Counted from the stretch's first letter, positions 6,036-62,835 are shown. The stretch is 64,000 bases of DNA from Candidatus Heimdallarchaeota archaeon (GCA_030149205.1 JASBSB010000001.1:134357-198356); one strand, 5' to 3'. Notes: generated by a model from the letters alone, not told the origin. Numbers and translations are program-made.

Positions 6036-7072
6036 CTGACTATCTCCTTAATCTTTGACTTTAGTTCTTCAGAATTATCTACAATTACAACATTCTTAAA
6101 ATTGTAGCGTATTTCATCATAATATTGATTAGAATTGTTTAAAATAATAAAATGGGTAATATCAATAAACGAAGTAAAAGCAAAATTAATTTCATCTACC
6201 TCTTCAGAAGGTAAATGCATATCTACAATCCATAATCCAATTTTTAGGTTATTCAATTCAATGTAAATGGGAATTGTTATACTCTCATTCTGACTATTTG
6301 TAATCTTTATTTCCTTACGGATAAAAATTGGATTGAATTCTTGAATTACATTGAGGAAGCTTTGACCAATTTTCTCCTGTAAATACTTGAAATCATCACT
6401 GAAAGCCGGAATTCCAGATATTTCCTCAAAATCTTTTGCTGTGTATTTTGTTCTCATTTGAGAGCTTGATTTTGTAATTATTTGTTCTATTATATCTTGA
6501 AATATTTGTTTAGGATTACGAATTAGAATATTATATTTTGATAGCTCTTCAAGACATTTACTCTTAATATTATCGAATGGACTTGATGGATGATTGGGGG
6601 CAAAATAATTCCAAACAAATTCTATTTTTTTGAATACTTCAATTTTTTTCTGATCTGTGAATTTTCCTTTGAAAAGAGAATTTATTCTACCTTTATCAGC
6701 ATTTGAAATTTCTAAATTGTTCTGAAGGTTTTGTTGAATTTGCAGTAGTTCAGTAATTTCTGCATTCCAACCCGATTGAGTTGTAAATCGAAATTTAATT
6801 TCTTTTCCAGATAAATTTTTTTCATCTTCCTGTATGAACTTTGTTAAAATTGGTATCAAACTTGATTTATTCCAGACACTATGTTCTTTTTTCTTTACCT
6901 GTTCAAATATAAAGTACCCAGTATATTCTATGTTAATATCTTCTAATTCATCATCCTTTGATTCAAATTCAATTGATAAAATCTGATCTCCTTTAATGAA
7001 TTCAATGACTCTTAGTACTCCAACCATATTTTGGTAATTAATACCATAGTTTGTATCAATTCCACTTGGCAA
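6032..7072 (-). CDS. DUF4297 / Cap4-type dsDNA-endonuclease-like (PD-(D/E)xK fold) N-terminal domain protein; first gene of the Argonaute operon
   Basis: The N-terminus (YGINYQNMVGVLRVIEF...IEFESKDDELEDINIEY...FEQVKKK) matches the G-x-x-YQ ... E..D.D ... QxK pattern of DUF4297 nuclease domains. The C-terminal ~220 aa are unassigned. A TTG start at 7072 is needed to include the YQ motif. Confidence 0.6.
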   Translation of the reverse strand: MPSGIDTNYGINYQNMVGVLRVIEFIKGDQILSIEFESKDDELEDINIEYTGYFIFEQVKKKEHSVWNKSSLIPILTKFIQEDEKNLSGKEIKFRFTTQSGWNAEITELLQIQQNLQNNLEISNADKGRINSLFKGKFTDQKKIEVFKKIEFVWNYFAPNHPSSPFDNIKSKCLEELSKYNILIRNPKQIFQDIIEQIITKSSSQMRTKYTAKDFEEISGIPAFSDDFKYLQEKIGQSFLNVIQEFNPIFIRKEIKITNSQNESITIPIYIELNNLKIGLWIVDMHLPSEEVDEINFAFTSFIDITHFIILNNSNQYYDEIRYNFKNVVIVDNSEELKSKIKEIVR

Positions 7073-27556: not shown

Positions 27557-28378
27557 ATGAATACTCCCTTTTCAGTTTTGGATATATTGCAAGCAAAAAC
27601 TGATGGCAAAAAGCTTGTTGAAATAACAGCATATGACTATTCCTTTGCAAAACTAATTGATAAGACTTCTAACGTTGATATGATTCTGGTTGGAGACTCA
27701 CTAGGGATGGTTGTGCAAGGTAACCCTACACCTATCCCTGTGACAATAGACCAGATGGTCTATCATACCAACATGGTTAGTCGAGCGGCAGAACATGCGA
27801 TGGTCATTGGAGACATGCCTTTCTTGTCATACCAAATTGATGAAACCAGCGCAGTCAAAAACGCAGGAAGGTTAATTCAAGAAGGTGGAGCAAACGCAGT
27901 AAAATTAGAGGGAGCTGGAAGAATGACTCCTATTATTAAGCATCTCGTAGAAATCGGAATACCAGTTCAAGGACACCTGGGTTTGACTCCTCAATCTATT
28001 AACTTGCTCGGAGGTTGGAAGGTTCAAGGAAAAACAAAGTCTTCCGCAGAAAAAATCAGAGACCAAGCATTGGAACTTCAAGAGGCAGGTGTTTTTTCAA
28101 TTGTTCTCGAGGGACTACCAATTGACACCGCTAGATTTGTAACTGAAGCAGTTTCAGTACCAACTATTGGAATCGGTGCTGGATGGCACTGTGATGGTCA
28201 AGTTTTAGTAATGCATGACTTACTAGGTCTCTCTGAATTTTCACCTCGATTTGCAAAAAGGTACGCTGATCTTGGAAAGATGGTTAGTGATGCAGTTGAT
28301 GGTTATGCAAAAGAGGTTAGGGAAGGAATTTTCCCGAATGAGGAATATTCCTACAAAACCAGAGTTAATCTTTCTTAA
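27557..28378 (+). CDS. panB: 3-methyl-2-oxobutanoate hydroxymethyltransferase
   Basis: ITAYDYSFAKL, ILVGDSLGMVVQG, GDMPF, VKLEG, GHLGLTPQ and IGIGAG. Confidence 0.95.
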   Translation: MNTPFSVLDILQAKTDGKKLVEITAYDYSFAKLIDKTSNVDMILVGDSLGMVVQGNPTPIPVTIDQMVYHTNMVSRAAEHAMVIGDMPFLSYQIDETSAVKNAGRLIQEGGANAVKLEGAGRMTPIIKHLVEIGIPVQGHLGLTPQSINLLGGWKVQGKTKSSAEKIRDQALELQEAGVFSIVLEGLPIDTARFVTEAVSVPTIGIGAGWHCDGQVLVMHDLLGLSEFSPRFAKRYADLGKMVSDAVDGYAKEVREGIFPNEEYSYKTRVNLS

Positions 28379-28481
28379 ACATAAAAATATATTGAAATCA
28401 ATAATAACTCTAAAAAGAGCTAATCACCTTAGTTTATTGCACGTGTCCCACAGCAAACACAGATTAAATATTCGTATCATC

Positions 28482-30398
28482 ATGCTGATTCTTGCAATGG
28501 CTGCCTTTGCCACTGGAATCCAAAGAACAGTGCTATCTAGTTATACTGGGCAGCTATCTACAGGTATCGCGGTTTTACTCGCCAGTGGTATTGGTTTGGT
28601 TATCTATGGTTCAGCAAAATCCTTAGGAAATATATTTGGTGGGTTTGGTTCTGAGCGTATTGGTCGCAAAATTACAATGATTTACTCTACTGTCATCATC
28701 TTTATTGCTTCTGGTATTATTTTCTTATTTCAAAATCTAACAATGTATCTAATAGGCCTCTTATTTTTAGGGGTAGGTACAGGTCTATTATTTGCATCTG
28801 CTTCAATTGCTCTATCTGATCTTTACGGTATAAATGGTAGAACTCAAGCATTCTCATCAATGGAACTGGCTGTTTACTCAGGAACTGCTGCAGGAAGTTA
28901 TCTTGCGGGGACATTATCAGCAGGACTTTCATTCTCATTAGTCTTTGTGGTCAGTTTAGTTGTTGCTGCATTTTCAATTTTTGTTGTGTTTTATTTTATA
29001 AGGGATACCTCAGAGGAACAAAAATTAGAGGTTGAATCTATGGAGATTAGCTCTATAGATATTAAAGAGCAAATAAAAAAGTCTGTGAATGATCTTGGAC
29101 TTACAAAGGGTTCAGGAGAAAAATTGTTAGAAAATATAAATTACGATCTAAGTGTTTCACCTAAAAAACTTAGAAAACTTTTACTTAATCCAACAATCAT
29201 CTTAACTTTTACATTAGGTACTTCCACGAGACTCTTTGACACTATCTTTATAATCTTAACCCCGCTTTATTTGTCATTGAAATTTTCGGAAAATATTTTC
29301 TTCTATGGAACCCTGAACACAATATTTCTCTTAGCATGGGGTTTAGGCATCTTAGTTTCACCTTACGTTGTCAATTTCACAGGTCGAAAATTCCCTGTGG
29401 TTTTTGGATTTATTATACAGGGTATTGCCTTATTTATGATTGAAACAGTTCCTGTAGAATTAATGGTAATGATCTCGGTTTTCTTTGCAGGGTTTGGAAT
29501 TGGATTGTATTATCCCTTAGGTAGTACAATTACAGCAGATCTATTTGCACCTGATCAAAAGGGAATTGTAGTCGGAATCTACAGACTATTTCTTGATGGG
29601 GGTTATTTAGTAGGATTTGCTCTGTTATATTTACTCAGTGAGTTTATTGTTCCTGCAATTACTCCAAACCTTTCTACTTTAAGAAATTACAGTTTGACTT
29701 CACAGATAGTAGCAGGAGTTCTAATCACTATAGGCATTCTACAATTTATGTTTATGAAAGACACAAAACCTGTGTGGGGGCAGCTTCCCTTACTTGTCAA
29801 ACATGCTCAAAAAGCACGTGAAACTATTTTGTACAGCCTTTGGGGTATTCTTTCCTTTTTAGGTCAGAATAATATGACCAACGAAAACTATATAGCTAAG
29901 GCGAAAAAGGCAGAAAGAGAGGCTGATATACTTCTTGATAATTTGACCCACATTACATACATGTATTCAATTCCAAGAAGGGACGCTGTTGAGCTATTAA
30001 ATACTGCATCCTTAATTGACAAGTCTGCCGGGAGAGCCTTTAGAGCCTTAAAGAGAATAAATCTATATTCTGGCCCAATTGGTGAGGACTTAAAGGAAAA
30101 TTTGATTGAATATTCAATTTTACTGCTAACTCAGATTGATTCATTTATTAAAACAATTGAAACAATGAATCATACTATTAGCCTAACTGGCTTGAAAAGT
30201 CAGGAGGTTTCTCTGTTTGAAGAGATGATGGACAAGCTCTATGAAAACATGTGGAATGAGATTAAAGATTTGCATATTCAAGATCTGTTTGATTTTAGGT
30301 CATTGACCGACACAGTTGATCTTTTGGAAAAATCAGCGAACATTATAGAAGATGCAGGTCAACTTGTGAAATTATTGACCTACAAATATTATGTTTGA
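28482..30398 (+). CDS. MFS-type transporter fused to a C-terminal DUF47/PhoU-like cytoplasmic domain
   Basis: About 12 TM helices with GSERIGRK between TM2 and TM3. The C-terminal ~200 aa contain KAEREADILLDNL...IPRRDAVELLNTASLIDKSA (DUF47-like). The start is moved to the ATG at 28482 (GTG 28443 possible), because the track start at 28251 lies inside panB. Confidence 0.7.
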   Translation: MLILAMAAFATGIQRTVLSSYTGQLSTGIAVLLASGIGLVIYGSAKSLGNIFGGFGSERIGRKITMIYSTVIIFIASGIIFLFQNLTMYLIGLLFLGVGTGLLFASASIALSDLYGINGRTQAFSSMELAVYSGTAAGSYLAGTLSAGLSFSLVFVVSLVVAAFSIFVVFYFIRDTSEEQKLEVESMEISSIDIKEQIKKSVNDLGLTKGSGEKLLENINYDLSVSPKKLRKLLLNPTIILTFTLGTSTRLFDTIFIILTPLYLSLKFSENIFFYGTLNTIFLLAWGLGILVSPYVVNFTGRKFPVVFGFIIQGIALFMIETVPVELMVMISVFFAGFGIGLYYPLGSTITADLFAPDQKGIVVGIYRLFLDGGYLVGFALLYLLSEFIVPAITPNLSTLRNYSLTSQIVAGVLITIGILQFMFMKDTKPVWGQLPLLVKHAQKARETILYSLWGILSFLGQNNMTNENYIAKAKKAEREADILLDNLTHITYMYSIPRRDAVELLNTASLIDKSAGRAFRALKRINLYSGPIGEDLKENLIEYSILLLTQIDSFIKTIETMNHTISLTGLKSQEVSLFEEMMDKLYENMWNEIKDLHIQDLFDFRSLTDTVDLLEKSANIIEDAGQLVKLLTYKYYV

Positions 30399-35747: not shown

Positions 35748-38036
35748 TTATCCAGAAGAACCCATGATCAACGTTTGGAGTGTATCAATTAATATTTCAA
35801 ATGGGAAGGGTTCTGTCTTAACCCTGTCTCTCGTGGATTGTTCCATGTTTGCGAACATTGTCCCAATTGAATATACCTGTTGGGCTGTTCCTTCTGCATC
35901 AGGAGCTCCACTGGCACCTACTTGATCTGCACTAGAGTAAGCCAAGTCTTTGGCACTAGACCAGTTTGATATGGCTTCAGAATAATTTTTGTTAAGAGTT
36001 GCAACAGTTGCATTTAGTGCCTTTTCAATTGCTTCGATAAAGCTAATTGCACCAGTTAAGTTGCCCTTTAAGACTTTGAAAAAATCCCAGTTCACAAGAG
36101 AACCTCTAATTATTATGGGTGCTTGATTCTTTAACACTGCATCCAAGGCTACCAGAATATCTGAGAGTGCGGATTTAAAGGTATCGAGTTCCATTATGTC
36201 ATAAGCCATAATCCCCGGCTTTCCAGAACCCTTTCCTAAAGCGGAGCTCTCTATCAATACTGCAATTTTGTTAATGAAGGTGAACTGGATAAGAGCAGAC
36301 CTAAGCTGAATCTCAGCGATTAACCCCCTTAGGAGAGCATTTTTTGCAATTGGTTTTAATACGGTCTCAATTGTCTCCTGTAATGGCCCGGTGTTGTCCT
36401 TGGTACAATAGGAAATTGCATCAAAAATTAAAAAGTAAGATTTAGCCCTCATCATTAATTCTTTAACCGGGTTAGAACCAAATTCATTTTCTGCGATTGA
36501 TTGGATTTGGATTGCTTCAGTTGCTTCATTAATGGCATATAATTCTGCGACTGCCTGATCAGTGAATTCGCTTTGGTTAGGAAGTAGGAGAAATGAAACT
36601 AGAAGTAGATCAAGATGTCTGTTTATGTGAGTTAGTTGGCTGGGAGGTAACCCCTGTTTGAGAGCTTGCATCCACTGTGTTGTTAAGTGTTGAAAGGCCA
36701 CCTTAAGCCTCTCCTCCAAGGAATTGAACCGACTATTTATGAATTCCAAGTCTTTTTTACTGTTCTCTCCGTTTTCTTCATCTGCGATATGAGACACATA
36801 CGCAAATATATTATCATAAATCAAGGGAAAAGTCGATATAAACTGCAAATCTCCTTTTCCAAGCATTTCTTGTATGAGATTCTCTGAGTCTTTGATTTGT
36901 TTTTTGATACTCTTGAAATCCTTTTTCTGTATTAATTCCTCGATCCCTTTATATTTAATGTTAAGCTCGCAGATGGATTTGGAAAGGAAAAACAACTCAC
37001 GCTCTTCTTCAAGTGTATATTCAGTCCATCCATCAATGACCTCAAGTAATGCAGCTGGATCGTCCTCAGAAACGTTTATTAGGTTAAATGCCATTTGGAA
37101 GTAACTTCCAGCAGATTCTAAGTCTTTTGACGAAAGGGCATTAATTGCTAGAGTCTTGTAATGTTGAGCTAAATACGCGTTTGCAAGAAGTTCGGCACGT
37201 ACATGGTTAGCATCATAGACATCCAATATCTCTTTAGCCAAATCAGATGTAGTTTTCTCCAAGTTGTCTTTCATTGACTCCATATGGTTTAATGCATGAG
37301 ATACCATGGAATGCATTACGATTGGGTCTTGCCACCACCAACTAGTCAGACCAGAGGATAAACGTTTAAGCACGACAGTTAACAAGAAGTTGAATTGACC
37401 CATGTCATAAGTGCTTAGGAGTTGAGCTTTCTCTTCATTGAATGTTTTTGGGTCATAAATTTCACCTAAATAATTTAACCGTTTTTGGATTTGGTATAAC
37501 CTCAACAGTTCAATTAAGGAGGATAGTGCTTCTGGAGTGAACGAGGGTTGATCCTTAAAAGCTAATAATGTTAATTCATCTAACTTTAGTTTAGTATTAA
37601 CATATCCCTCTGTTTTTTTGTAAAGATTTGACTCTTTTAGAATTCCACTTCTCATCATAGTGGCATATGCATATCCCATTACATTTATATCAAACCAAAA
37701 ATCGGTAATAGATTGAATTCTTTTGAAATCTTCAGGTTTAACTTTTTCAGGAGACCTTTTCAATTCATCAATTATTCTATTGTATAATGATTCTGTTAAA
37801 TCCATTACAGATAACAGGTGTTCTACCACAGTCTGAGAAAAGTCATTCCAATCTCTTGCAATCTCACTTGTTTCATCTATATCAAGATAATTCTTGTATA
37901 ATAATTTATTTGCGTTAATCAATGATTCAAATTTCGAAAAAACAAGTCTTTCATCTAATTGAAACTTTAAATCCATCACTAGAATAATAGGATACTCTTT
38001 TTTTAATGTTTGGTAGTTTCTAATGTAATTCTGCAA
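35748..38036 (-). CDS. Large hypothetical all-alpha protein (762 aa)
   Basis: Uninterrupted ORF with helical-repeat-like composition. No recognisable motif. Confidence 0.5.
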   Translation of the reverse strand: MQNYIRNYQTLKKEYPIILVMDLKFQLDERLVFSKFESLINANKLLYKNYLDIDETSEIARDWNDFSQTVVEHLLSVMDLTESLYNRIIDELKRSPEKVKPEDFKRIQSITDFWFDINVMGYAYATMMRSGILKESNLYKKTEGYVNTKLKLDELTLLAFKDQPSFTPEALSSLIELLRLYQIQKRLNYLGEIYDPKTFNEEKAQLLSTYDMGQFNFLLTVVLKRLSSGLTSWWWQDPIVMHSMVSHALNHMESMKDNLEKTTSDLAKEILDVYDANHVRAELLANAYLAQHYKTLAINALSSKDLESAGSYFQMAFNLINVSEDDPAALLEVIDGWTEYTLEEERELFFLSKSICELNIKYKGIEELIQKKDFKSIKKQIKDSENLIQEMLGKGDLQFISTFPLIYDNIFAYVSHIADEENGENSKKDLEFINSRFNSLEERLKVAFQHLTTQWMQALKQGLPPSQLTHINRHLDLLLVSFLLLPNQSEFTDQAVAELYAINEATEAIQIQSIAENEFGSNPVKELMMRAKSYFLIFDAISYCTKDNTGPLQETIETVLKPIAKNALLRGLIAEIQLRSALIQFTFINKIAVLIESSALGKGSGKPGIMAYDIMELDTFKSALSDILVALDAVLKNQAPIIIRGSLVNWDFFKVLKGNLTGAISFIEAIEKALNATVATLNKNYSEAISNWSSAKDLAYSSADQVGASGAPDAEGTAQQVYSIGTMFANMEQSTRDRVKTEPFPFEILIDTLQTLIMGSSG

Positions 38037-38643: not shown

Positions 38644-40047
38644 ATGTCTAGGGTAATTTCTCATCTACTAAGAGATATATCCAGCTTAACAAGATACCAT
38701 CAGGATGCATCTTCAAGGTTATGCTTTCTACTTGGTGCAAGAGAAGCAATAAGATTAATGATGGCTGTTAAAGATGCAGCAGAAAATCAATTTCTTATAT
38801 TAAATGTTCCACCCAAAGAAAAAAACATGGAGAGAGTAATGGAGAAGGTCATAAAGGAAATCAAGATTCAAGGTTATGAGTTTGAATTGAGAGAAGACTT
38901 AGGCAATGTTATAAGCATAAAGACCCGAGATCGAAAACTTGAACTTGAAAGAAGAATTGAAGAGGCCGAAAACGAAGAAGAGAAGAGTGAGATCCTTAAC
39001 AGGTTTGATATTGAATATGTTAAGCAGAAGGGAATTCCCACAGCAGTTGTTCGAAGGGAAGCATCAATTGCTGCCTCATTAGGCGCCTCTATTGTCTCTG
39101 GAGATATTCTACAGGATTCAAATATTCAACCACAACAGGAAGTTGTGATTCAAAACATCTACTATGACATTGTTGCTTATGGTATAGCTGAGCTAAGCAG
39201 TGAAGAGATAAAAAGATCTCCAAGAAGAATTGCCATCAGAACACTAGAAGGAAGGTTTGACACCTTTAATGTTCATCATCAAAAAAGGTTCAGGAATGGT
39301 CTTTACTCCGTCACAACTTTACCTAGAATTTTAGGTTTAAATTTGCTCAAATTTAAAAAATCTACTCCTGCAAACGTCTTGGTTATCGCAGAGGATAAAG
39401 GTGAAATTGCAGTTGAGCTTTTTAAGAAAGTACCTGAAGAATCACAAATTGCTATCGTCATCAATAATGACGCCCACCGAAGAGATGTGGTGGAGACAAT
39501 AGAACGACTGGGATTTGAAGAAAGCAACTTTAAATTCATCATTGATGGGATCGATAGATACGCTAAAAGCAGACCAAGGCGAAAATTTACACACTTCTTT
39601 ATTGAGTTTCCTTCATCAAACACGGGTATCCGACCTAACCCCTTTGTTGATTTAGAAGAAAAGAATATCATCAGCTATGCCAGAGGACAATTTCAGGGTA
39701 TACGTGCATTATCATTGCTTGGAACAAACGAATCACAGGTTGCTTATGTTTCCCATTCGATAGATCCAAGTGAAAATGAAGATATTGTGGTTCAATCGTT
39801 CAGGCAGGGTTACTTTTCACCTTTGGTTTTAACTGATGAACTAAGAAAAACCTATCCAATAATAATGCGAGCACTTCCAGAAATTCCCACAATTTCTCAA
39901 GGAGGAACAATTGATGGTTCCAGATTAAAGCAAGAAGAAATGTTTGCCTCCTGCTGGTTAGCAGTGGATCCGGAGATCCATAAATCAGATGCAGGGTTTG
40001 TTGCTTACTTTGAATTACTCCTTAAACCGAGTGGAAGAAGAAGATGA
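38644..40047 (+). CDS. Nop2/Sun (RsmB/Trm4)-like protein with PUA-like insert, predicted catalytically dead
   Basis: Colinear with m5C RNA methyltransferase motifs but degenerate. The SAM loop reads VIAEDKGEI (canonical DxCAAPGGK). Motif IV reads IEFPSSNTG (canonical DAPCSGTG). Motif VI reads YVSHSIDPSENE (canonical YSTCSxxxEENE). Confidence 0.5.
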   Translation: MSRVISHLLRDISSLTRYHQDASSRLCFLLGAREAIRLMMAVKDAAENQFLILNVPPKEKNMERVMEKVIKEIKIQGYEFELREDLGNVISIKTRDRKLELERRIEEAENEEEKSEILNRFDIEYVKQKGIPTAVVRREASIAASLGASIVSGDILQDSNIQPQQEVVIQNIYYDIVAYGIAELSSEEIKRSPRRIAIRTLEGRFDTFNVHHQKRFRNGLYSVTTLPRILGLNLLKFKKSTPANVLVIAEDKGEIAVELFKKVPEESQIAIVINNDAHRRDVVETIERLGFEESNFKFIIDGIDRYAKSRPRRKFTHFFIEFPSSNTGIRPNPFVDLEEKNIISYARGQFQGIRALSLLGTNESQVAYVSHSIDPSENEDIVVQSFRQGYFSPLVLTDELRKTYPIIMRALPEIPTISQGGTIDGSRLKQEEMFASCWLAVDPEIHKSDAGFVAYFELLLKPSGRRR

Positions 40048-51211: not shown

Positions 51212-52645
51212 TTAACGGCTGTTTCGACCATCTCTGCCTTTTTTTAACCTGCGTGAGTGGAGTAAGGACTTTAAATCTCTTGGTTTTTCTCTCTCTTCTT
51301 TGAGATTTTTAATTCTACGTTGGTTAAGATGTTCCTCCCAGAATTTCTTCCTCTCTTGAAAATTCATCCTAGACATATCATCAGGTTCAACTTTGTTTCC
51401 TTGAATTATGTTTCTTTTAAACCGTTTTTCCAAACTTTGACTTCCCTTAGAACTGGTTTCAGAACCCGTTTCAGAACTCGCAGCGGAACTAGTGGAAGAA
51501 GAAATATCAACCCTTGAAATTCTGTTTTCCCATAATTTCTTTCTCTCTTCAAATTGTTCCTTAAAATTTTTTAATTCATTTAACCTACTTGACTTTTTAG
51601 AGGTTACCTCAGTCTTTTGATTTCGAACACCTATTCTCGAAGGTGATCGGGGAGTAACAGAAATAGGTTCAGCCATTACATCCCCAATTTTTTGATAAAC
51701 CCTATGACTACCAGATATTGTTTTAAGAGTGTTTTTCCAACTTCCAAAAAGAGTTTCAGTTCTCCCAATGATTAAGAACCCACCAGGGTTCAATGATTCT
51801 ACAAATTTCTCAATTATCCTCCTCTGTTCCTGCTTATCAATATAAATTAAAACATTTCTGCAGAAAATTGCATCAAATCCCTTTGGATAGGTATCTTTAT
51901 TGAGATCGTGTAAAGAGAAGTTTACTCTATTACGAATTTCCTTATTTACCTTGTAATACCCTTCCCCTGTAAGTTTAAAATATTTTGTGGCTTCAATCTT
52001 ACGAGTCTCACTTAAATAAGAGCCATCGTAAGTCGCATGTCGAGCAATTTCGAGTAAATCTGGATTGACGTCTGTGGCTAAAATTCTCAACCTCAGGTCA
52101 TTTGTTCTTAATTTGTCTTCGAATATCATTGAGATCGTATAAGGTTCTGCTCCCACTGCGCACCCTGCTGACCAAATTTTGATTTCACTCCCTTTCCTCG
52201 AACCATTGGAAGTGATCTGTGGTACAATATGATCTCTCACAAGTTCAAATGTATCTCTGTTTCTGAAGAATCGAGTTACATTGATTGACAATGACTCCTT
52301 GATTTTCGAAATTTCACCAAAATTTCTTTTGATATAGGCCAAATACTCAGAATAAGAACTCATGTTTAACCTATTCATTCTCATCCTTATCCTACGAGTG
52401 ATATATCGCTCTTTGTAAGCTGAGGTTTCGATTCCTTGCTTTTTAAGATGAGATAGCAAATAAGGCAGGTTGGTCTCATCTAGTTTACGCTCTTTTGTAT
52501 TAATTGAAAATAGCCGTTCAGAAACAGTTGAATTACCCTTTCGAGGCGATTTACTTGAAGTTTTGTTCAAATAAGATTCTGGACCTAATCCCCGACCGAG
52601 GGTTGCTCCTTTTGCAACTTTTGGTTTATCTTTACCTGAGACCAC
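51212..52645 (-). CDS. cheR: CheR-type protein-glutamate O-methyltransferase with basic N- and long Ser/Lys/Arg-rich C-terminal extensions
   Basis: TRFFRNRDTFE, IKIWSAGCAVGAEPYTISM, ILATDVN, IFCRNVLIYID and LNPGGFLIIG. Confidence 0.8.
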   Translation of the reverse strand: MVSGKDKPKVAKGATLGRGLGPESYLNKTSSKSPRKGNSTVSERLFSINTKERKLDETNLPYLLSHLKKQGIETSAYKERYITRRIRMRMNRLNMSSYSEYLAYIKRNFGEISKIKESLSINVTRFFRNRDTFELVRDHIVPQITSNGSRKGSEIKIWSAGCAVGAEPYTISMIFEDKLRTNDLRLRILATDVNPDLLEIARHATYDGSYLSETRKIEATKYFKLTGEGYYKVNKEIRNRVNFSLHDLNKDTYPKGFDAIFCRNVLIYIDKQEQRRIIEKFVESLNPGGFLIIGRTETLFGSWKNTLKTISGSHRVYQKIGDVMAEPISVTPRSPSRIGVRNQKTEVTSKKSSRLNELKNFKEQFEERKKLWENRISRVDISSSTSSAASSETGSETSSKGSQSLEKRFKRNIIQGNKVEPDDMSRMNFQERKKFWEEHLNQRRIKNLKEEREKPRDLKSLLHSRRLKKGRDGRNSR

Positions 52646-52680: not shown

Positions 52681-54189
52681 CTATCTTTTTAACTTTCTAA
52701 TAATTACCAAAATTAGTGTGAAAATAACGAATGAGATAATCGTAAAGGGAACAGGAGTAGTTTTGCTGTCAAACTGAGCGGACAAAATCCCTGAATTTTT
52801 GATTTGTCTAACCCATAGCCCATTAGAGTTTTGACTATCTAGCAAGGTAGTTGTTAATCTTTGAATTGTATTGTTGACTATCCCCGATAGTTGGAGAATC
52901 CGCAAAGTTTCATAATTTTTAGCCAAAACCTGCAATACCCCAGCTATACCTTCAGAATAGGAAAGATCGAAAAATCGATCTTCTTTATTAGACGAGTGGA
53001 TCAGATAATAATTCCAACTACCTGTTTGGACGTTGGTTACATTCACAATTTGTGAGTTAAGAAAGTCAAGAAAGGCAGATTTTAGAGATGTCTGTTGAGT
53101 CCGAGTAAGTTTATTATAACTACTCAAAAGGAAATCAAAAACACCAAGGACACCTGAACTTAGGGAGTTTAGTTGAATTGAACTGTTCGGTTGCACGTGA
53201 AAATAGGGGGAGACAGAGGAAAGTTTATTCATCACTAATTGGAGTGGTGTTTGTATCTCTTTTGAATAATCAGTTTGTGAGCTTCCTAAAGATTCAAGGA
53301 TACCAGAGACACCTGAATTAAGATTGTAATTAAGCTCAGTTGTATCGTTTTCCGTATTCCAAAGACCATTGGGTAGCTGCCTAGAGACCAAGTAGGAATA
53401 CACCTTTTTGGAAAAATCTAATATTGAGGAATTTTGACTTATTCCTGCAAAATTTTGAAGTGATAGGGCTATTCCTGCCATTCCCTTCCCATATCCGTAT
53501 ATTTCAACTCCAGCAAACCCCTTTTCAAATGGGTACCAAGGTATTGATATCCCCGATTGGTGTTTGGTTGAAATTGAATACAACCAATTCACTACTTTTT
53601 CTCCCCATTTAAGATAGGTTTGATTCTTTGTTAATTTATACAAGGAACCAACTGCTCCTAAGATTCCTGCTGAGCCGAATTCAAGTCCTGACAGAGGGAT
53701 GCCAAATGCTTTGCTCACATTTGAATCCGCATATCCCCAGAAAGCCTTGTTTCCATCCAAAATTGAGCGGGTAAATAATAAATTGAGGGCGGACTGAGCC
53801 TGGTCAAACCAAATCCTATTCTTTGAAAAATTGTAATAGGACAACAACGAATTAATTATTCCTGACTGACCATATTTATCACCAACATAAATTACTGAAT
53901 AATTATCAACCGTTTTTCGCCAAAGGGAGAGGGGGGTCCCATATAGGTCATTTATACGCTCATTTAAAAGGCCCTGATAAAATTGACTTAAGCTCCTGTT
54001 TACTTCACCCTGTAACTTAACTGGGAGAATAGGGTAGACTTTAATCAAAGTTTTTGCAATACCAGCCCCACCATATTCAAATCCCAGGTATGTTGAATAG
54101 TCTTGTTCTGGAAGCGGTGGTGCTTGAGAATGAACTGTCAGAGGCAAAATAAGAATTAATACTATAAATAACCCGGAAAATAACCTCAC
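52681..54189 (-). CDS. Secreted, C-terminally anchored LanC-like (alpha/alpha-toroid) repeat protein without cysteines
   Basis: Signal peptide present. There are at least 7 G-x-[AS]-G-I motifs at helix starts: GGAGIAKTL, GQSGIINSL, GSAGILGAV, GMAGIALSL, GVSGILESL, GVLGVFDFL and GIAGVLQVL. The C-terminus is a TM helix plus RKLKR. Confidence 0.5.
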   Translation of the reverse strand: MRLFSGLFIVLILILPLTVHSQAPPLPEQDYSTYLGFEYGGAGIAKTLIKVYPILPVKLQGEVNRSLSQFYQGLLNERINDLYGTPLSLWRKTVDNYSVIYVGDKYGQSGIINSLLSYYNFSKNRIWFDQAQSALNLLFTRSILDGNKAFWGYADSNVSKAFGIPLSGLEFGSAGILGAVGSLYKLTKNQTYLKWGEKVVNWLYSISTKHQSGISIPWYPFEKGFAGVEIYGYGKGMAGIALSLQNFAGISQNSSILDFSKKVYSYLVSRQLPNGLWNTENDTTELNYNLNSGVSGILESLGSSQTDYSKEIQTPLQLVMNKLSSVSPYFHVQPNSSIQLNSLSSGVLGVFDFLLSSYNKLTRTQQTSLKSAFLDFLNSQIVNVTNVQTGSWNYYLIHSSNKEDRFFDLSYSEGIAGVLQVLAKNYETLRILQLSGIVNNTIQRLTTTLLDSQNSNGLWVRQIKNSGILSAQFDSKTTPVPFTIISFVIFTLILVIIRKLKR

Positions 54190-54275: not shown

Positions 54276-54899
54276 CTAAATTGCCTTCAACCAATGGAGA
54301 ACCTGTTCTCCTAACAGATCAAAAGCCTCCTTAACGTTTAATCCGGTTTTTGCAGAGGTATCAAGGTAATGTACTTCAAACTTACCTTTACTGTATGATT
54401 TGTTCAAATTGGAAATAAAGTCTTCTATTTCTTCGGCTGGAACGCCTGTCCCGTCCTCCACCAAATCAGCTTTGTTTCCAAGGATAATTAGAGGGACATG
54501 TCCTCTAGAGCTATGTTTAGATAATTCTTCTAGCCAATGTTTCAAATTTTGAAATGAGGATGGTCTCGTTCTATCGAAGACTAATATTCCACCAAAACAT
54601 CCCTTGTAATACATCGATCTCACCGAATTAAATGTTTCCTGACCTGCAAGATCCCAAATTTGAAAAGTTACATCATATTTCTTCCCATTAAACTCGTACT
54701 TCACAGATTTAGCAGCGAAATCCGCACCAATTGTTAAGATGTGCTCCTCAGTAAACCCTACACCAAGGTAATTTCGTCTTAGGCTAGTTTTTCCAACTGC
54801 ACCATCTCCCATAAGCACGAGTTTTATAAAGTAAGCAGATGGATCATCTTTCTTTGATTTTTGAGTGGTGGGTTCTGAGGACTTCTTTTTCCAAAACAA
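54276..54899 (-). CDS. Small GTPase of the Ras superfamily (Rab-like)
   Basis: G1 GDGAVGKTS, G2 TIGADF, G3 WDLAGQE, G4 GNKADL and G5 TSAKTG. It has a ~20 aa basic N-extension and no C-terminal Cys. Confidence 0.85.
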   Translation of the reverse strand: MFWKKKSSEPTTQKSKKDDPSAYFIKLVLMGDGAVGKTSLRRNYLGVGFTEEHILTIGADFAAKSVKYEFNGKKYDVTFQIWDLAGQETFNSVRSMYYKGCFGGILVFDRTRPSSFQNLKHWLEELSKHSSRGHVPLIILGNKADLVEDGTGVPAEEIEDFISNLNKSYSKGKFEVHYLDTSAKTGLNVKEAFDLLGEQVLHWLKAI

Positions 54900-56436: not shown

Positions 56437-57897
56437 TTGAAGCCTATGAATGACGATCGAATTGTCTTGCTCAGTGTAGGAATTGATATTGGGTCTTCTA
56501 CCAGTCACTTGGTATTTAGTAACATTACATTAGAGAGAAATGAGCATTCTTACTCAAGAAGGTTTGAAATTGTAGACAGAAAGGTTGTATTTTCATCCAT
56601 TATAATCGATACCCCCTTACTGAATCCCACAACAATAGATGTAAAACAATTGGTTAAATTCTTACAAGATCAGTACGAACTTGCAAAAATTACAAAAGAG
56701 CAGGTACAGACTGGTGTGGTCATAGTTACCGGTGAAACAGCAAAGAAGGAAAATGCAAAAGAAATAGTTGAAACCTTGGCAGAAGATGCAGGAAGCTTTG
56801 TTGCTGCAACAGCTGGACCAAATTTTGAGTCACTAATTGCAGCATATGGAAGTGGTGCAGTTCAAAGGTCAGAACGGGAAGAAATAGCAATTCTTTCATG
56901 TGATATCGGAGGAGGCACCTCGAACATTGCCATTTCTAAAGGTGGCTTAGTCCAAGAAACCTCCTGTATTTCAGTCGGAGGTCGACTCATCGCATTTGAC
57001 AAGGATAGGATTATAACCAGGATTGATGGACCAGGAAGACTGGTACTTGATGAACTGGGACTGAATCTAAATATAGGTTCTGAGATAACAGAGACCCAAC
57101 AGAAACAGGTTGCTGAAAGGCTTGCGACTGCATTACTAAATAGTATTACTCGAAACCATTCGGATAAGCTTGTTGATAAACTTCTGATGACGGAAAACGT
57201 TTCAATACCTATTTCAGAAATCGACGAGGTGTTCTACTCTGGTGGAGTCTCAGAGTTTGTTTATGGATCAAAAAGAGAGTACTATAATGATCTAGGATAC
57301 GAGCTAGGTAAAGCAATTAAGGTCAAAACAGAAGAATTAGGGATCCAAATGTTTGAACCAGAAAATAAAATTAGGGCAACGGTAATTGGTGCTGGAAACT
57401 ATACACTTCAGGTGTCAGGTTCTACCTGTTTCCTAGATGATATGGATTTTCCAATAAAAAATATACCCGTCTTGGAAGCAAACATCCAAAGAGAATTCTT
57501 GAGTGAAGATCATGTAATAGAAGAGATTTCTAAGGCTTTCAAGAGATTTGACTTCATTGAAGGAGAAGAGATAGTAGCTTTTCACTTTAAAGATCCTGTG
57601 AGAGCTGCATATCAAAAATTGAAGACCTTTGCGATCTCATTAGAGAAAGCACTTCCTAACACAATAAAGTCAGGGATACCTGTGATCTTGATTTTTGAAA
57701 GAGATATTGGAAATTCGGTTGGGAATGTAATCAGACGTGAAACAGCCATTGAAGATAATCTCATAAGTATTGATGAGATACATGTAAAAGAAGGAGATTG
57801 GATAGACATTGGCAAACCAATGGTAAGTGGTCAAGTTGTTCCAGTAACTGTCAAATCATTAGTCTTCTCCAAAACAAACAATAATAATGGAAGATAA
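56437..57897 (+). CDS. EutA-like ASKHA (actin/Hsp70-fold) ATPase
   Basis: LLSVGIDIGSSTSHLVFS (phosphate-1), VIVTGETAKKENA and SCDIGGGTSNIAI (phosphate-2). Its length is close to ethanolamine ammonia-lyase reactivase EutA. Confidence 0.7.
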   Translation: MKPMNDDRIVLLSVGIDIGSSTSHLVFSNITLERNEHSYSRRFEIVDRKVVFSSIIIDTPLLNPTTIDVKQLVKFLQDQYELAKITKEQVQTGVVIVTGETAKKENAKEIVETLAEDAGSFVAATAGPNFESLIAAYGSGAVQRSEREEIAILSCDIGGGTSNIAISKGGLVQETSCISVGGRLIAFDKDRIITRIDGPGRLVLDELGLNLNIGSEITETQQKQVAERLATALLNSITRNHSDKLVDKLLMTENVSIPISEIDEVFYSGGVSEFVYGSKREYYNDLGYELGKAIKVKTEELGIQMFEPENKIRATVIGAGNYTLQVSGSTCFLDDMDFPIKNIPVLEANIQREFLSEDHVIEEISKAFKRFDFIEGEEIVAFHFKDPVRAAYQKLKTFAISLEKALPNTIKSGIPVILIFERDIGNSVGNVIRRETAIEDNLISIDEIHVKEGDWIDIGKPMVSGQVVPVTVKSLVFSKTNNNNGR

Positions 57898-57919: not shown

Positions 57920-58405
57920 TCACTTTGAGTAAGCTGTTTTGATAGTCTCCCGAATATCCTGTCGAACATTCCCCGGGAGCTCTTTTAACATTTCAAGAAC
58001 GGATTTAACCTCCGTTGGAATGTCTCTTTTGACGAAATTGTCATAGCCAACAACAACTCTGGAAATGTAGCCTGACGCACAGATCTCTCCAGTTTCTTTG
58101 TTCACAATAACATGATTTGTTGTGAAGGAATGATTTCCAATCCTAGAAACATAACACAAAACTTCTACCTCATCACCAAATTTCAACGGATGGTGAAAGC
58201 TGGTCTTATGTTCAATTATTGGTAGCAAAAAATCCAACTTTTTGTGAGCTTCCCAATCCAATCCATAATACCGAAGAATTCCTAAAAAATTCTCATCAAA
58301 GTAAGTGGCAAATGACCCAAAGTACAGTATACCAGCTGCATCCGTGTCACTGAATCTCACTATCTCAGTTGTTTTATACATAGTAAATAGTCTCGAGAAG
58401 GTCAT
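57920..58405 (-). CDS. Acyl-CoA thioesterase, 4HBT/YbgC-like hotdog fold
   Basis: VRFSDTDAAGILYFGSFATYFDE carries the catalytic Asp motif. Length is also consistent. Confidence 0.8.
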   Translation of the reverse strand: MTFSRLFTMYKTTEIVRFSDTDAAGILYFGSFATYFDENFLGILRYYGLDWEAHKKLDFLLPIIEHKTSFHHPLKFGDEVEVLCYVSRIGNHSFTTNHVIVNKETGEICASGYISRVVVGYDNFVKRDIPTEVKSVLEMLKELPGNVRQDIRETIKTAYSK

Positions 58406-58460: not shown

Positions 58461-58802
58461 TCAGATTGACTTTTCTCTCAGAGTTGATATCTTTACGATG
58501 CGAGGTTTCTCAATCGTAATTGATTCTACTACCTGTCGGGAAATCCACTTTGAGATAGTCTTAAACTGTCTGATATCGTTGACTATTTCCTTTCCTCGAT
58601 TAGTTAGCTTAAACAGACTAAACCTTTGAACTACCAACCCATCATCCATAAACTCTTTTAAGAAGCGATTTGTGGTTTTAGCCTTAAGCCCAAATTCCAT
58701 AAGCTCTTTAATTGTTCCAAGTCCCAGTGAATCTAGTGCAACCAAAGTTTTTGCCCTTAATGGTGTTCGAAGGCTATAGGGATAATCATCCTTGTCGAAC
58801 AT
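58461..58802 (-). CDS. Winged-helix DNA-binding-like small protein
   Basis: LVALDSLGLGTIKELMEFGLKAKTTNRFLKEFMDDGLVVQ...KLTNRGKE has a MarR/ArsR-like layout. Confidence 0.45.
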   Translation of the reverse strand: MFDKDDYPYSLRTPLRAKTLVALDSLGLGTIKELMEFGLKAKTTNRFLKEFMDDGLVVQRFSLFKLTNRGKEIVNDIRQFKTISKWISRQVVESITIEKPRIVKISTLREKSI

Positions 58803-58843: not shown

Positions 58844-60520
58844 TCAACTGGGTGTTAGTATATACCTAGTAAACCAATCAAATACTGCTTCAGACGAACT
58901 AATAGGATCATCTTTGGCTTTCCATGCAAGTGTGCTTATCGTATCCTCATCATTTAGGGTAAATTCATTTGAAAACAAGGATTTTCGTGTAAATTTGTAA
59001 TCTGATTCTAATATATTCCGATTTAAAAAATTTGAAAAGCTGGATTTAGCCTTAGAAAACAATGAATCAGTACGTTCGATCTCTATTTCAGAGTGGTTAA
59101 CATCACTCATTGCCTCCAGCAATTCGATAGGTGAAGCATCAAAGCTTTTGAAACTAAACATGCCCTCTGAACTCTTGTTAATTAGCAAAGCAATTGCACG
59201 AGATAAATCTAGTTCAGTTATCCATGAAATTTTATTCTTACCAGAGCTTGGTAATGAGATCCTCTGAAGTTTCACACCTTTGCAAAATTCAAATGTAAGT
59301 TCTCTATCAAAAGCACCGAAGTAGAATCCTGGTCTTAGTATGCTTAATTTGGGATAGTAGGGTTCTTCCTTTTCACTAGGCTGATCTGAAAGGTCTGGAT
59401 CAAGAGATTCTTCAACTGTATTACTTAAATTAGGGACATTGGGTTTACCATCTAAGTTAGGGACACTGGGTTTACCATCCAAGTTGGGAACGCTCGATTT
59501 ACCATCCAAGTTGGGGACATTGGGTTTACCATCTAAGTTAGGGATACCAGGCTTATTGTCTAAATTGGGGACACTGGGTTTGCCATCTAGATTAGGGACA
59601 CTGGGTTTACCATCCAAGTTGGGGACACTCGGTTTGCCATCTAAGTTGGGGACACTCGATTTGCCATCCAAGTTGGGGACACTGGGTTTACCATCTAAGT
59701 TAGGGATACTAGGCTTATTGTCTAAATTGGGGACACTCGGTTTGCCATCTAGATTGGGGACATTGGGTTTACCATGTAAATTGGGGACACTCGGTTTGCC
59801 ATCCAAGTTGGGGACACTCGGTTTGCCATCCAAGTTGGGGACACTCGGTTTGCCATCCAAGTTGGGGACACTCGGTTTGCCATCTAGATTGGGGACATTG
59901 GGTTTGCCATCCAAGTTAGGTGAAGAAGTAGAGATTTTTATATTTTTATCAGATTCCGAAGGGTCTTCATTTGTGTTTGATTTGAATCCTGTTCCTTCGG
60001 AGGACCTTATAGAATCCATCCATTCATCGTAATTTGAAGGTGTTCCAAAGTCTGAATGAGAGAAGTAGTTTTTACATACTTCAATTGCTCCAATCAAAGA
60101 CAAATGATAAGGGTCATTCGTGTCATAATCAGAGTCGGGAGAGATAAATTTCATAGAGTTCCAACTTAAGAACATTGGAACCACGCTTATGACCTGTTTG
60201 ACCTTTTTCTCCTTTGCAATAGCCAGCAAATTGATTAACCCCTGTCTATGTAGTATCATAGAATCCATTGATGAAAGTCTTGGATTCAAGGAGAAATCAA
60301 CTTGGCCGTTTACCACAATATCATTTTCTTGAAATATATGTTTTAAGCTCTCAGGATATCTGACATCTGCAAGATGTAAATCAAACCTTTGAAATATCCC
60401 TCGTGGAGCAGACCCCTCAGAGCTGCAAAATACCAGATCCTTAATTGGCATCCGTGGAATGAGATATCTTGCAAAGATACTTCCCACCAAATAATCCACT
60501 CCAAGAATGACAACTCTCAT
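58844..60520 (-). CDS. NAD-dependent epimerase/dehydratase-like (extended SDR fold, degenerate motifs) protein interrupted by an ~18.5-copy nonapeptide repeat
   Basis: N-terminal Rossmann-like MRVVILGVDYLVGS. C-terminal block ILRPGFYFGAFD...ISWITELDLSRAI. The central array of PNLDGKPSV units spans aa ~200-365. Confidence 0.7.
   Translation of the reverse strand: MRVVILGVDYLVGSIFARYLIPRMPIKDLVFCSSEGSAPRGIFQRFDLHLADVRYPESLKHIFQENDIVVNGQVDFSLNPRLSSMDSMILHRQGLINLLAIAKEKKVKQVISVVPMFLSWNSMKFISPDSDYDTNDPYHLSLIGAIEVCKNYFSHSDFGTPSNYDEWMDSIRSSEGTGFKSNTNEDPSESDKNIKISTSSPNLDGKPNVPNLDGKPSVPNLDGKPSVPNLDGKPSVPNLDGKPSVPNLHGKPNVPNLDGKPSVPNLDNKPSIPNLDGKPSVPNLDGKSSVPNLDGKPSVPNLDGKPSVPNLDGKPSVPNLDNKPGIPNLDGKPNVPNLDGKSSVPNLDGKPSVPNLDGKPNVPNLSNTVEESLDPDLSDQPSEKEEPYYPKLSILRPGFYFGAFDRELTFEFCKGVKLQRISLPSSGKNKISWITELDLSRAIALLINKSSEGMFSFKSFDASPIELLEAMSDVNHSEIEIERTDSLFSKAKSSFSNFLNRNILESDYKFTRKSLFSNEFTLNDEDTISTLAWKAKDDPISSSEAVFDWFTRYILTPS
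59425..59920. repeat. 27-bp tandem repeat array (about 18.5 units), in-frame within the CDS 58844-60520
   Basis: Plus-strand units such as ttagggacattgggtttaccatctaag and ttggggacactcggtttgccatccaag are repeated head-to-tail. Boundaries are approximate (+/- 10 nt). Confidence 0.9.
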
Positions 60521-60634: not shown

Positions 60635-60919
60635 GTGAACTTATTGGAACAAAACGATTCTGATCTAACTACTTGGTTGAGACTCGGGGAACTTGAAAAA
60701 GTGAACTTATTGGCGGTTCATTCAGATTTACCCATCGAAATATTAGTAACTGCAGCTAAAGACTCGTCTCTAAGTGTGAGGATGTCCCTACTGTCACACT
60801 TACACTCCATTTCTCCTTTAAATTTTAATATAGTAAGAATTCTTCAGATGGTTGAAACAAAAGACCCCGAAGACATTGTCAGAAAATCAGCAAGCCATAT
60901 ACTTAAGAAGGTCAGGTAG
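60635..60919 (+). CDS. Hypothetical small protein, HEAT-like repeats (tentative)
   Basis: AAKDSSLSVRMSLLSHL and DPEDIVRKSASHILKKV resemble PBS-lyase HEAT-like units. GTG start. Confidence 0.35.
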   Translation: MNLLEQNDSDLTTWLRLGELEKVNLLAVHSDLPIEILVTAAKDSSLSVRMSLLSHLHSISPLNFNIVRILQMVETKDPEDIVRKSASHILKKVR

Positions 60920-61604
60920 ATTTAATTAAATTCGCTATACGTACAGCTATAGCAGCAGCAGAAATACCATTCCCTATGTTGACCACTGATAAACCAGGGG
61001 AACAGGATTGTAGAGCAGAAAACAAGGCTGCCTCACCTTGTCCTCCTTTCCCATATCCAACAGGAGAGGGTACTGCAATTACAGGTATTGAAAACAAAGA
61101 ATTAACAACTGAGAACAGAGCACCCTCAAAACCTGCAACTACAATAACTGAGGTGAAATCTGCCTCATCAATGTTAGAATAGAGAGACGAGAGTCTTCTT
61201 AAATTTGCGACACCAACATCTTGGTAACTTTCAAAGCCTAAACCATGAAATTCTAAAGCTAATGCAATTTCTTCAACAACAGAAATATCACTTGATCCCC
61301 CAGATAGGATTAATACTTTACCTGTTCGTATCTTTGGTTTACCACCCCCAATAATATAAGTTGACCCAAATCTGGATTTTTTGTAAACTGTCACATTTTT
61401 CTCTTTTAATAGATAAGCCTGTTCCTTAGTCACTTTAGAGAGCAGAAAAAGAGTATCATTTAGATTGTCTGTGATTTGATCTAATATTTCTAGAAAGACC
61501 TCATTTGGTTTTCCTTCACAATAAATTACCTCAGTGAACCCTTGACGGTTCTCCCTATCAAACTCAAAATTAAAGTATTCACTCATTTTATTCACGACCT
61601 CCAT
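60912..61604 (-). CDS. larB: LarB-like nickel-pincer-cofactor biosynthesis protein (PurE/AIR-carboxylase-related)
   Basis: VLILSGGSSDISVVEEIALALEFHG, VIVVAGFEGALFSVVNSL and IPVIAVPSPVGYG. It overlaps larC by 17 nt. Confidence 0.8.
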   Translation of the reverse strand: MEVVNKMSEYFNFEFDRENRQGFTEVIYCEGKPNEVFLEILDQITDNLNDTLFLLSKVTKEQAYLLKEKNVTVYKKSRFGSTYIIGGGKPKIRTGKVLILSGGSSDISVVEEIALALEFHGLGFESYQDVGVANLRRLSSLYSNIDEADFTSVIVVAGFEGALFSVVNSLFSIPVIAVPSPVGYGKGGQGEAALFSALQSCSPGLSVVNIGNGISAAAIAVRIANLIKST

Positions 61605-62835
61605 CTTTAACTATATCTTGTTTCTTAGTTTTCTCCTTATTTGATTCAATCTTTTCAATAGCTTGATCAAAAGAGAGTCTTTGTTGAAGCTCTAAAGGAG
61701 TAATACCAAGATGCTTTGCTGCATTCTGAAGATCTTCAAATTCATATTTCTTGGAATATAACCCACGTTTAATTCGTATTTGTGGGTTCATGTCAACAAC
61801 AGATTCAACTTTTCTACCGCTGATATGACGGAATGCTGTCGTTATTCTAACACCTAATGTCCCAGTTTCCCTCATCACCAGTTCTGAGACCTTATCAACA
61901 TCTTGAATTTTAGTTAGTACTCTTAAACACCAACCTGGCCTGTTTTTTTTCATAATTAGAGGATAGTAGGAGACATCCAATGCACCAGCGGTTGCTAAAC
62001 TTTCAAAACTGTGACCGAGGAATTCTCCAGAGATATCATCCAAATGTGTCTCTATAACTGCAATTTCAGAGGGAGTTTGTGCTAAATAGCCAATTCTAAG
62101 TCGAAGAAAGTTTGAAAAGTTCTCGAACTCTTTGACCCCAAATCCTAATGCAGATCCAGTCCAAATTACTTGGTTCACAGATTTGAAATTCTGAAATAAT
62201 GAGCGAATAATTGACGCTCCGGTTGGTGTGAGGAACTCTCCTGAAACGATGGAGGGTACTGTCTGTAGTGGAACTCCCTCCAAAATTTTCAGAGTAACTG
62301 GACTGGGAACAGGAACGACACCATGAGAGGTTTTAACTCTTCCAGATCCGACATTAATTGGAGAAAACCCAACAAATTGAACGCTGAGAAAATCTAAGAG
62401 GTATGCTGTTGAATAAATATCAAAAAGAGTATCTAAAGTCCCAAGCTCATGTAAATGAAGATGCTTGGTTTCAACACCATGAACATCCTTTTCTGAACTT
62501 ACCAACAAATCTAGTGCTTCCTGCCCAAATGACCTGTATTTTTCTCTTAAATTAGTACTAAATTCAACTAGGTTGTTCGATAATTCTTGAACCGTTTGCC
62601 TTTTTTCGAGACCAGTTAACATGAGTTGGTAACCAGAAAATCCGTGACTATTGACCTTTTTAAGATCAATTGTTACTCCTTCGCTGACCTTTGAAAACTT
62701 GGTTAAAATGTTCTCCAAAACCTTAATTCGATCAGATTCAGATAACAGACCTAGTAAGGCTGAAACCACCATATCACCCGAAGCCCCAGCCACAGCGGCA
62801 TCAACCCAGAGAACCAAATTTGTAATTTTCTTCAA
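61588..62835 (-). CDS. larC: LarC-like nickel insertion protein (DUF111 family)
   Basis: N-terminus VLWVDAAVAGASGDMVVSALLGL (DUF111 GxSGDM motif). LHLHELGTLDTLFDI. Length about 415 aa. Confidence 0.8.
   Translation of the reverse strand: MKKITNLVLWVDAAVAGASGDMVVSALLGLLSESDRIKVLENILTKFSKVSEGVTIDLKKVNSHGFSGYQLMLTGLEKRQTVQELSNNLVEFSTNLREKYRSFGQEALDLLVSSEKDVHGVETKHLHLHELGTLDTLFDIYSTAYLLDFLSVQFVGFSPINVGSGRVKTSHGVVPVPSPVTLKILEGVPLQTVPSIVSGEFLTPTGASIIRSLFQNFKSVNQVIWTGSALGFGVKEFENFSNFLRLRIGYLAQTPSEIAVIETHLDDISGEFLGHSFESLATAGALDVSYYPLIMKKNRPGWCLRVLTKIQDVDKVSELVMRETGTLGVRITTAFRHISGRKVESVVDMNPQIRIKRGLYSKKYEFEDLQNAAKHLGITPLELQQRLSFDQAIEKIESNKEKTKKQDIVKDGGRE

Follow-up and report, generated by a model that had tools for sequence, protein, structure and literature searches.

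An in-frame coding minisatellite in a predicted disordered loop of a putative pseudo-enzyme family from Heimdallarchaeota

A stretch of 64,000 nucleotides from Candidatus Heimdallarchaeota archaeon (GCA_030149205.1, JASBSB010000001.1:134357-198356; hereafter, the window) carries on its minus strand a single open reading frame (ORF) of 558 amino acids (aa) which contains a genuine in-frame coding minisatellite, built of 27-bp units that encode the nonapeptide PNLDGKPSV. The host protein has the fold of the extended short-chain dehydrogenases/reductases (SDRs), from whose catalytic and nucleotide-binding motifs it has departed, and the array lies in a long insert of that fold that is predicted to be disordered. 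Taken as a whole, the gene probably corresponds to a slippage-generated coding minisatellite, located in a hypervariable disordered loop of a pseudo-SDR, through which a short motif is displayed multivalently. The positions of the features are collected in Table 1.

Table 1. Features of the repeat gene and its surroundings in the window, and tandem arrays at the equivalent site of related loci
Sequence	Feature	Position	Strand	Remarks
Window	Single ORF, 558 aa, putative pseudo-SDR with internal repeat loop	58844..60520	-	ATG at 60520; stop codon 58844-58846
Window	N-terminal Rossmann part, aa 1-177	59990..60520	-	Predicted local distance difference test (pLDDT) 85-98; alternating strands and helices; profile and hhalign matches to N-terminal halves of extended SDRs
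Window	Degenerate glycine loop, G7-V-D-Y-L-V-G13	60482..60502	-	Middle Gly of GxxGxxG gone
Window	Vestigial active-site motif, Y138-H-L-S-L142	60095..60109	-	Leu in place of the catalytic Lys
Window	Predicted disordered insert, aa 178-374	59399..59989	-	Acidic/Ser-rich lead-in, repeat array, acidic tail
Window (P0001)	Tandem array, unit PNLDGKPSV, 27 bp x 18.2	59426..59920	-	18 x 27 bp at 59435-59920 plus PNL stub at 59426-59434; 6-unit (162-bp) higher-order period
Window	C-terminal part, aa 375-558	58847..59398	-	Next Rossmann strands and equivalent of the substrate domain; pLDDT mostly >90
Window	Antisense ORF, 197 aa, LGTLGLPSK repeats	59439..60032	+	Judged a by-product of the repeat
Window	LarB (AIRC)	60912-61604	-	Near the repeat gene
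Window	LarC (Ni_insertion)	61588-62835	-	Near the repeat gene
Window	EutA-like ATPase	56437-57897	+	Near the repeat gene
Window	Ras/Roc/Arf-type small GTPase	54276-54899	-	Ras, E 1e-40
Window	CheR methyltransferase beside LanC-like protein	51212-52645, 52681-54189	-	Pair also upstream of the family gene in L014; CheR in L007
L005 (P0018)	Tandem arrays in the equivalent loop	6574-6734, 6830-7018		39 bp x 4.1 (98% matches) and 24 bp x 7.9; 39-bp unit GPKLSGPQAPNSE
L011 (P0020)	Tandem array in the equivalent loop	8644-8815		45 bp x 3.8; unit SGPTLGGPQ...
L007 (P0003)	Tandem array in the equivalent loop	6583-6813		75 bp x 3.1; unit ...GGPNLGG...
L001 (P0002)	No DNA tandem array detected			About eight degenerate KPPxLDxxPS copies

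Tandem Repeats Finder reported one outstanding array, the only one with a score above 50 in the 64-kb window, at 59426-59917 (period 27, 18.2 copies, 81% matches, score 550), and described it also at the longer periods of 81 bp (6.0 copies) and 162 bp (3.0 copies, 89% matches). Translation of the minus strand gives 18 complete nonapeptides (aa 201-362), read in frame over 486 bp (18 x 27), and a partial 19th unit. Around the consensus PNLDGKPSV, the following variants can be distinguished: (i) DNKPSI, in unit 8; (ii) DNKPGI, in unit 14; (iii) DGKSSV, in units 10 and 16; (iv) DGKPNV, in units 1, 15 and 18; and (v) HGKPNV, in unit 6. A degenerate DNA pattern for PNLDGKP has 16 matches, all of them within the array, against an expectation of 0.00 (100 shuffles). 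The array is, in short, detectable by a repeat finder, head-to-tail, in frame and beyond chance, that is, a coding minisatellite.

The units are most alike when they lie six apart, with an identity of 88.6% at this spacing versus approximately 81% at other offsets, and six-unit blocks taken in the best phase are 93.8% identical. Hence, if replication slippage or unequal recombination is what lengthened the array, its growth would have included (i) a phase in which a 162-bp block of six units was duplicated after the units had diverged; and (ii) a more recent expansion, to which the identical units 3-5 point. Because of these three units, the longest exact internal repeat measures 77 bp. A previous sequence-only reading of the window had described a 27-bp (9-aa) head-to-tail in-frame array, a set of variant units and a higher-order pattern, and all of these are recovered here.

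At the DNA level 13 distinct units are found and, as peptides, only 6. All nine codons vary at their third position, and that for Leu appears as TTA, TTG and CTA. Pooled over units, the proportion of synonymous differences (pS) is 0.58 and that of nonsynonymous differences (pN) 0.068, so that pN/pS is 0.116 (approximately 0.12), a value that supports purifying selection on the peptide. The claim that many differences between units are synonymous is thus sustained, and so is, with the caveat that the antisense frame through the repeat gives a pN/pS of 0.17, the claim that the peptide and not just the DNA is maintained. Since this antisense frame is both open and low-scoring, pN/pS alone cannot pick the coding strand and was dropped as a criterion for it; the minus strand is settled by flanking homology. 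As to the antisense ORF itself, it was rejected as a gene: it is open only through the repeat, and all the homology and fold evidence comes from searches with the minus-strand ORF. Its low pN/pS is a reminder that such ratios, when taken inside repeats, do not reveal the coding strand.

The host protein is identical to database protein P0001, and it begins with MRVVILG, which in the alignment matches the MRxVIxG at the start of its family. Searches of Pfam, NCBIfam and PDB sequences with the window protein alone (whole, de-repeated and as two halves) gave (i) no Pfam match even at E <= 10; (ii) nothing significant among PDB sequences; and (iii) one match only in NCBIfam, with the Pro-rich region of the IgA-binding protein BAC of group B Streptococcus (NF038253), which, at E 0.005 and with 14.6 bits where 1700 are required, is compositional only. 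It is in family profiles and in structure that the fold becomes evident. A profile of 23 members, from which canonical SDRs were excluded, matches L-threonine 3-dehydrogenase and dTDP-glucose 4,6-dehydratase in PDB with E values from 3.6e-13 to 1e-11; hhalign against a canonical dehydratase-like ORF gives a probability of 90.8%; and 16 of the 25 proteins found by HMMER (see below) match Pfam Epimerase individually at E <= 0.1. The family has a complete extended-SDR (sugar-nucleotide epimerase/dehydratase) fold, with a Rossmann domain and a C-terminal substrate-binding lobe that can be superimposed on solved extended SDRs. The epimerase-like fold suggested by the sequence-only reading is, therefore, borne out by the family and not by the window protein alone. 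That reading had also placed both flanks of the array in one gene, which holds: the ORF is continuous, the profile matches to PDB run through the N- and the C-terminal parts and hence make of the two flanks one fold and one gene, and relatives have the same split architecture.

Whereas an active enzyme of this type presents a TGxxGxxG loop and an S...YxxxK motif, the window protein has neither. The middle glycine of GxxGxxG is absent from the 19 family members that cover the site (19/19), while the canonical SDR P0023 reads GATGFIG there. In the hhalign alignment, DPYHLSLIGA is paired with SPYSATKIGA, in such a way that Y138 is kept and L142 falls opposite the catalytic Lys; no family member keeps this lysine, whose position is occupied by Leu, Phe, Tyr, Thr, Ile or Asn. 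Opposite the catalytic Ser/Thr stands Pro115, and a proline is conserved at that position in the family. The degeneration of GxxGxxG and YxxxK already suspected in this protein (GVDYLVG; YHLSL versus YSATK) is, in consequence, a family-wide trait, and the loss of the middle glycine, the catalytic Ser/Thr and the Lys makes of the family, most likely, a non-catalytic pseudo-enzyme. The C-terminal part, for which profile matches to the C-terminal halves of L-threonine dehydrogenases were obtained, is the most conserved in the family (FGxFD, ISWIxPxD, SFDAS, NxS, WxW), with the nearly invariant columns G402, S432, D438, F460, N475, W533 and W549. The location of the most conserved columns there suggests that a surface for the binding of a ligand or a partner may have been retained.

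The last elements of the N-terminal part are the vestigial YxxxK helix and a further helix, after which the insert begins. Residues 160-389, insert included, align to a loop of 6 residues in the canonical SDRs P0023 and P0024, so that the insertion falls after the YxxxK helix, in the loop that leads to the next Rossmann strand. The array had been thought to split the Rossmann half of the protein from its C-terminal half; the insertion inside the fold stands, but not its location exactly at the domain boundary. In the AlphaFold model, aa 178-374 have pLDDT values of 30-43 and no secondary structure according to DSSP (pLDDT below 50 without secondary structure spans 178-368 and 372-374), in line with the expectation that the array loops out of the fold. 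An earlier AlphaFold model, obtained from an alignment of 2 sequences (mean pLDDT 29.6), has no secondary structure for the array either. Pro makes up 21% of the array and Asn 15%, its net charge is near zero, and in the charge-hydropathy plot it lies marginally on the disordered side (hydropathy 0.40 versus a boundary of 0.416). The loop around the array is thus predicted to be disordered and surface-exposed.

Relatives of the protein are few. An exhaustive comparison by HMMER of the de-repeated protein with 1.84 billion representatives yielded 25 proteins: a distinct family of 23 members and the two canonical extended SDRs mentioned above (P0023, with motifs GATGFIGS and YHRSK, and P0024). 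Among 5.8 billion protein clusters, a word-indexed search returned only P0001 itself and P0002, which is the closest relative (491 aa, 45% identical) and comes from a contig labelled Candidatus Heimdallarchaeota; this same contig and one canonical bacterial SDR were all that was found in GTDB representative genomes. When the profile of the family alignment was run against a database of clusters at 90% identity, at least 2 proteins scored. No second copy of the exact gene was found in the 5.8 billion protein clusters, JGI metagenomes or GTDB representative genomes; in JGI metagenomes, a DNA pattern for two adjacent PNLDGK units gave 0 matches, and the family pattern appeared in metagenomes in only 2 short loci. 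A protein search with the repeat only yielded nothing at E <= 0.001 and missed also the parent protein, and is hence uninformative, probably owing to composition filtering. Source labels are available for 3 family members or contigs, all of them Candidatus Heimdallarchaeota (Asgard archaea). The family is, then, uncharacterised, small and, on the basis of these three labelled members, known so far from Heimdall-type (Asgard) archaea alone.

Every full-length member of the family carries an insert, which in P0023 and P0024 is missing. In relatives it is shortest in P0014 (45 aa) and longest in P0015 (272 aa), versus 6 aa in canonical SDRs, and its composition goes from Pro/Ser-rich to acidic or Lys-rich; when full-length relatives are matched to the de-repeated query, all except P0014 give two stretches that flank the insert. 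Some relatives have arrays of their own at the equivalent site (Table 1), with different units, and these arrays are independent. The P-x-L-x-G core is encoded by 3 of the 4 arrays of relatives, the 24-bp array (EDNKNEAH) being the one that has no such core. In turn, the closest relative, P0002, has only degenerate copies, which argues that the repeat unit is older than the present homogeneous array. The loop had been regarded as a hotspot for length variation, and it is one between lineages, given the range of insert lengths and the independent arrays in three other lineages.

The motif P-x-[LI]-x-G, as taken from the window unit, was counted in the linkers of the 19 other members. It has 20 matches where 1.5 are expected, and the highest count among 2000 composition-preserving shuffles is 7; these matches fall in 9 of the 19 linkers, and the counts are inflated by duplication within proteins.

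As explained above, it is probable that the loop of this pseudo-SDR has been colonised by a coding minisatellite that displays a motif multivalently. The array would be a flexible tether, on which a short linear motif is offered in many copies to a hypothetical partner, and the dead SDR body would be a folded anchor or a ligand sensor; the display of motifs, or "ligand array" role, is inferred. Several points weigh against this explanation: (i) the partner of the motif is hypothetical; (ii) pN/pS within one array is not a clean test, since gene conversion makes the units non-independent, and the antisense frame also scores low; (iii) the disorder is a prediction, and the low pLDDT may partly come from the lack of aligned homologues for the segment; (iv) the loss of NAD(P) binding is deduced from the motifs; (v) the copy number of 18 is the count as assembled; and (vi) 10 of the 19 linkers, being acidic or Lys-rich, have no P-x-[LI]-x-G, so that a generic spacer fits the whole family more uniformly.

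Such a generic spacer is the alternative that best survives. According to it, the loop simply tolerates insertions, and the array is a passive spacer or tolerated junk, grown by neutral slippage and with, at most, an entropic function. The lengths of the linkers (45-272 aa), their Pro-rich, acidic or Lys-rich character and the frequency of linkers without the motif are what this alternative would lead one to expect, as are the 45-aa linker of P0014, which matches the query in one stretch, and the fact that, between relatives that are 94% identical, substitutions lie mostly in the linker. Passive tolerance accounts poorly, by contrast, for the low pN/pS among units, with synonymous change at every codon; for the independent amplification of the motif core at four periods (27, 39, 45 and 75 bp); for the enrichment of the motif in other linkers; and for the retention of the insert by every full-length member of the family while the canonical relatives have none. 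All in all, the passive spacer is deemed unlikely, albeit credible.

It is very unlikely that the nonapeptides form a structured domain, i.e., a rigid rod or solenoid such as a polyproline-II bundle or an RTX-like beta-roll. The strict period of 9 residues and the conserved Pro, Leu, Gly and Val positions do recall solenoid repeats, and the low AlphaFold confidence could stem from missing aligned homologues; but neither of the two models predicts secondary structure, two prolines and one glycine per nine residues do not resemble the RTX repeat GGxGxDxUx, and at the equivalent site the relatives have units of 13, 15 or 25 residues, or aperiodic sequence, which goes against a conserved repeat fold. 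The RTX-like beta-roll in particular was rejected, as PNLDGKPSV fits GGxGxDxUx in no rotation and no RTX family was matched in Pfam or NCBIfam.

Finally, an assembly artefact or the wrong joining of two genes is extremely unlikely: the identical units 3-5 and their 77-bp exact repeat mean that the count of these units could be wrong, and the exact gene is present in one assembly only among the searched collections, with no assembly for comparison, but 13 distinct unit sequences with a mean identity of 81% make wholesale collapse or invention improbable, the frame is held across 486 bp, relatives from independent assemblies share the split architecture and, given the continuous ORF and the single fold of its flanks, the two-gene model was rejected. 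Since 77 bp is the longest exact repeat, the risk of collapse or expansion is confined to the count of units 3-5.

The motif-displaying pseudo-SDR can be compared with several known systems. Extended SDRs such as GalE, RmlB (PF01370) and L-threonine 3-dehydrogenase have a loop of 6 residues where the window protein has an insert of approximately 200 aa, and the latter falls below any Pfam threshold and has its catalytic motifs replaced. Atypical regulators with an SDR fold (MAT2B, SDR39U1, NDUFA9) appeared among the search matches, which showed no specific sequence relationship between them and the window protein. Further non-catalytic or atypical regulators of this fold are NmrA and HSCARG; to our knowledge, all five keep a glycine-rich loop and bind NAD(P)(H), and in none of them is a long repeat insert known in the loop that follows the YxxxK helix. 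With prokaryotic coding minisatellites, or variable number tandem repeats, the array shares the head-to-tail in-frame units, the higher-order period and a lineage-specific unit length and copy number. However, the classic proteins of this type are mostly surface or secreted, whereas the window protein is presumably cytoplasmic, since its sequence opens with the first Rossmann strand and lacks any N-terminal extension before it.

As regards Pro-rich linkers, formin FH1, the polyproline of VASP, the Pro-rich spacer of TonB and the XPZ region of the streptococcal beta antigen consist, like the window array, of short Pro-containing units which are repeated and non-globular. But while these linkers lie between domains or are terminal, the window array is internal to a folded domain, and the prolines of its unit stand singly and never as PPP. 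A weak interaction of heimdallarchaeial profilin with a VASP polyproline peptide has been reported (PMC8410842). Profilin might be considered as a partner of the array, but as only a lead, the window unit having no proline run.

The surroundings of the gene were compared with those of the related loci L001, L005, L006, L007, L010, L011, L012/L013 and L014. LarB or LarC lies within a few genes in 7 of the 9 places (the window, L001, L006, L007, L010, L012/L013, which correspond to one protein, and L014), and EutA is near the family gene in 5 of the 9, with varying orientations of the LarB, LarC and EutA genes. This LarB/LarC/EutA-like neighbourhood recurs even between members which are only 25-35% identical. 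LarB and LarC take part in the synthesis of the nickel-pincer cofactor, and their proximity, together with that of EutA, could be due to a functional link to this synthesis or to deep synteny; since the window also shares CheR, LanC-like and EamA neighbours with L007 and L014, general synteny is an adequate explanation. GTPases similar to that of the window are near the family gene in 6 of the 8 related loci (the short L006 and L012/L013 showed none), which agrees with an Asgard (Heimdall-type) source for the window, itself archaeal in that it encodes a class I lysyl-tRNA synthetase and a thermosome.

Directly downstream of the repeat gene, and on the same strand, there are a small winged-helix protein (HTH_45, E 1.6e-7; 58461-58802, minus strand) and a 4HBT-type thioesterase (57920-58405, minus strand), which may be co-transcribed with it; neither was seen beside the family gene in the other loci examined. 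LarB and the repeat gene are 391 bp apart, and in this gap there is an ORF of 94 aa (60635-60919, plus strand) with a weak, below-threshold resemblance to HEAT repeats (E 0.004). Elsewhere in the window, an ORF of 715 aa (28251-30398, plus strand) joins a major facilitator superfamily transporter domain to a C-terminal PhoU_div/DUF47, an unusual fusion, and four large ORFs of 467-762 aa are without a Pfam match at E <= 1e-5 (3145-5346, 1379-3157 and 35748-38036, minus strand; 38644-40047, plus strand). Rfam and tRNA scans of the 64-kb window found nothing.

A further, quite unlikely, possibility is that the dead epimerase is a Heimdall scaffold in which the amplified P-x-L-x-G recruits several copies of a eukaryote-like partner (e.g., profilin or some other module that recognises proline), with the LarB/LarC/EutA neighbourhood perhaps marking the process concerned. 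If true, it would be a prokaryotic case of the multivalent interaction of motifs in disordered regions that is typical of eukaryotic signalling and cytoskeletal regulators.

Known kinds of elements, namely (i) a coding tandem repeat; (ii) a disordered linker; and (iii) a pseudo-enzyme, come together here in a heimdallarchaeial family that is uncharacterised. Of these, the repeat and the linker are commonplace by themselves; less ordinary is the setting, i.e., a common fold that seems dead, an insert that is always long and the recurrent amplification of P-x-L-x-G. In practical terms, the array is a likely spot for errors of copy number in assemblies and a possible strain marker. Among archaea, Heimdallarchaeota, home of all three labelled members, stand closest to eukaryotes. 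Should the motif have a binding partner, the family would provide a tractable archaeal model of multivalent signalling through short linear motifs, in which a pseudo-enzyme has been turned into a scaffold.

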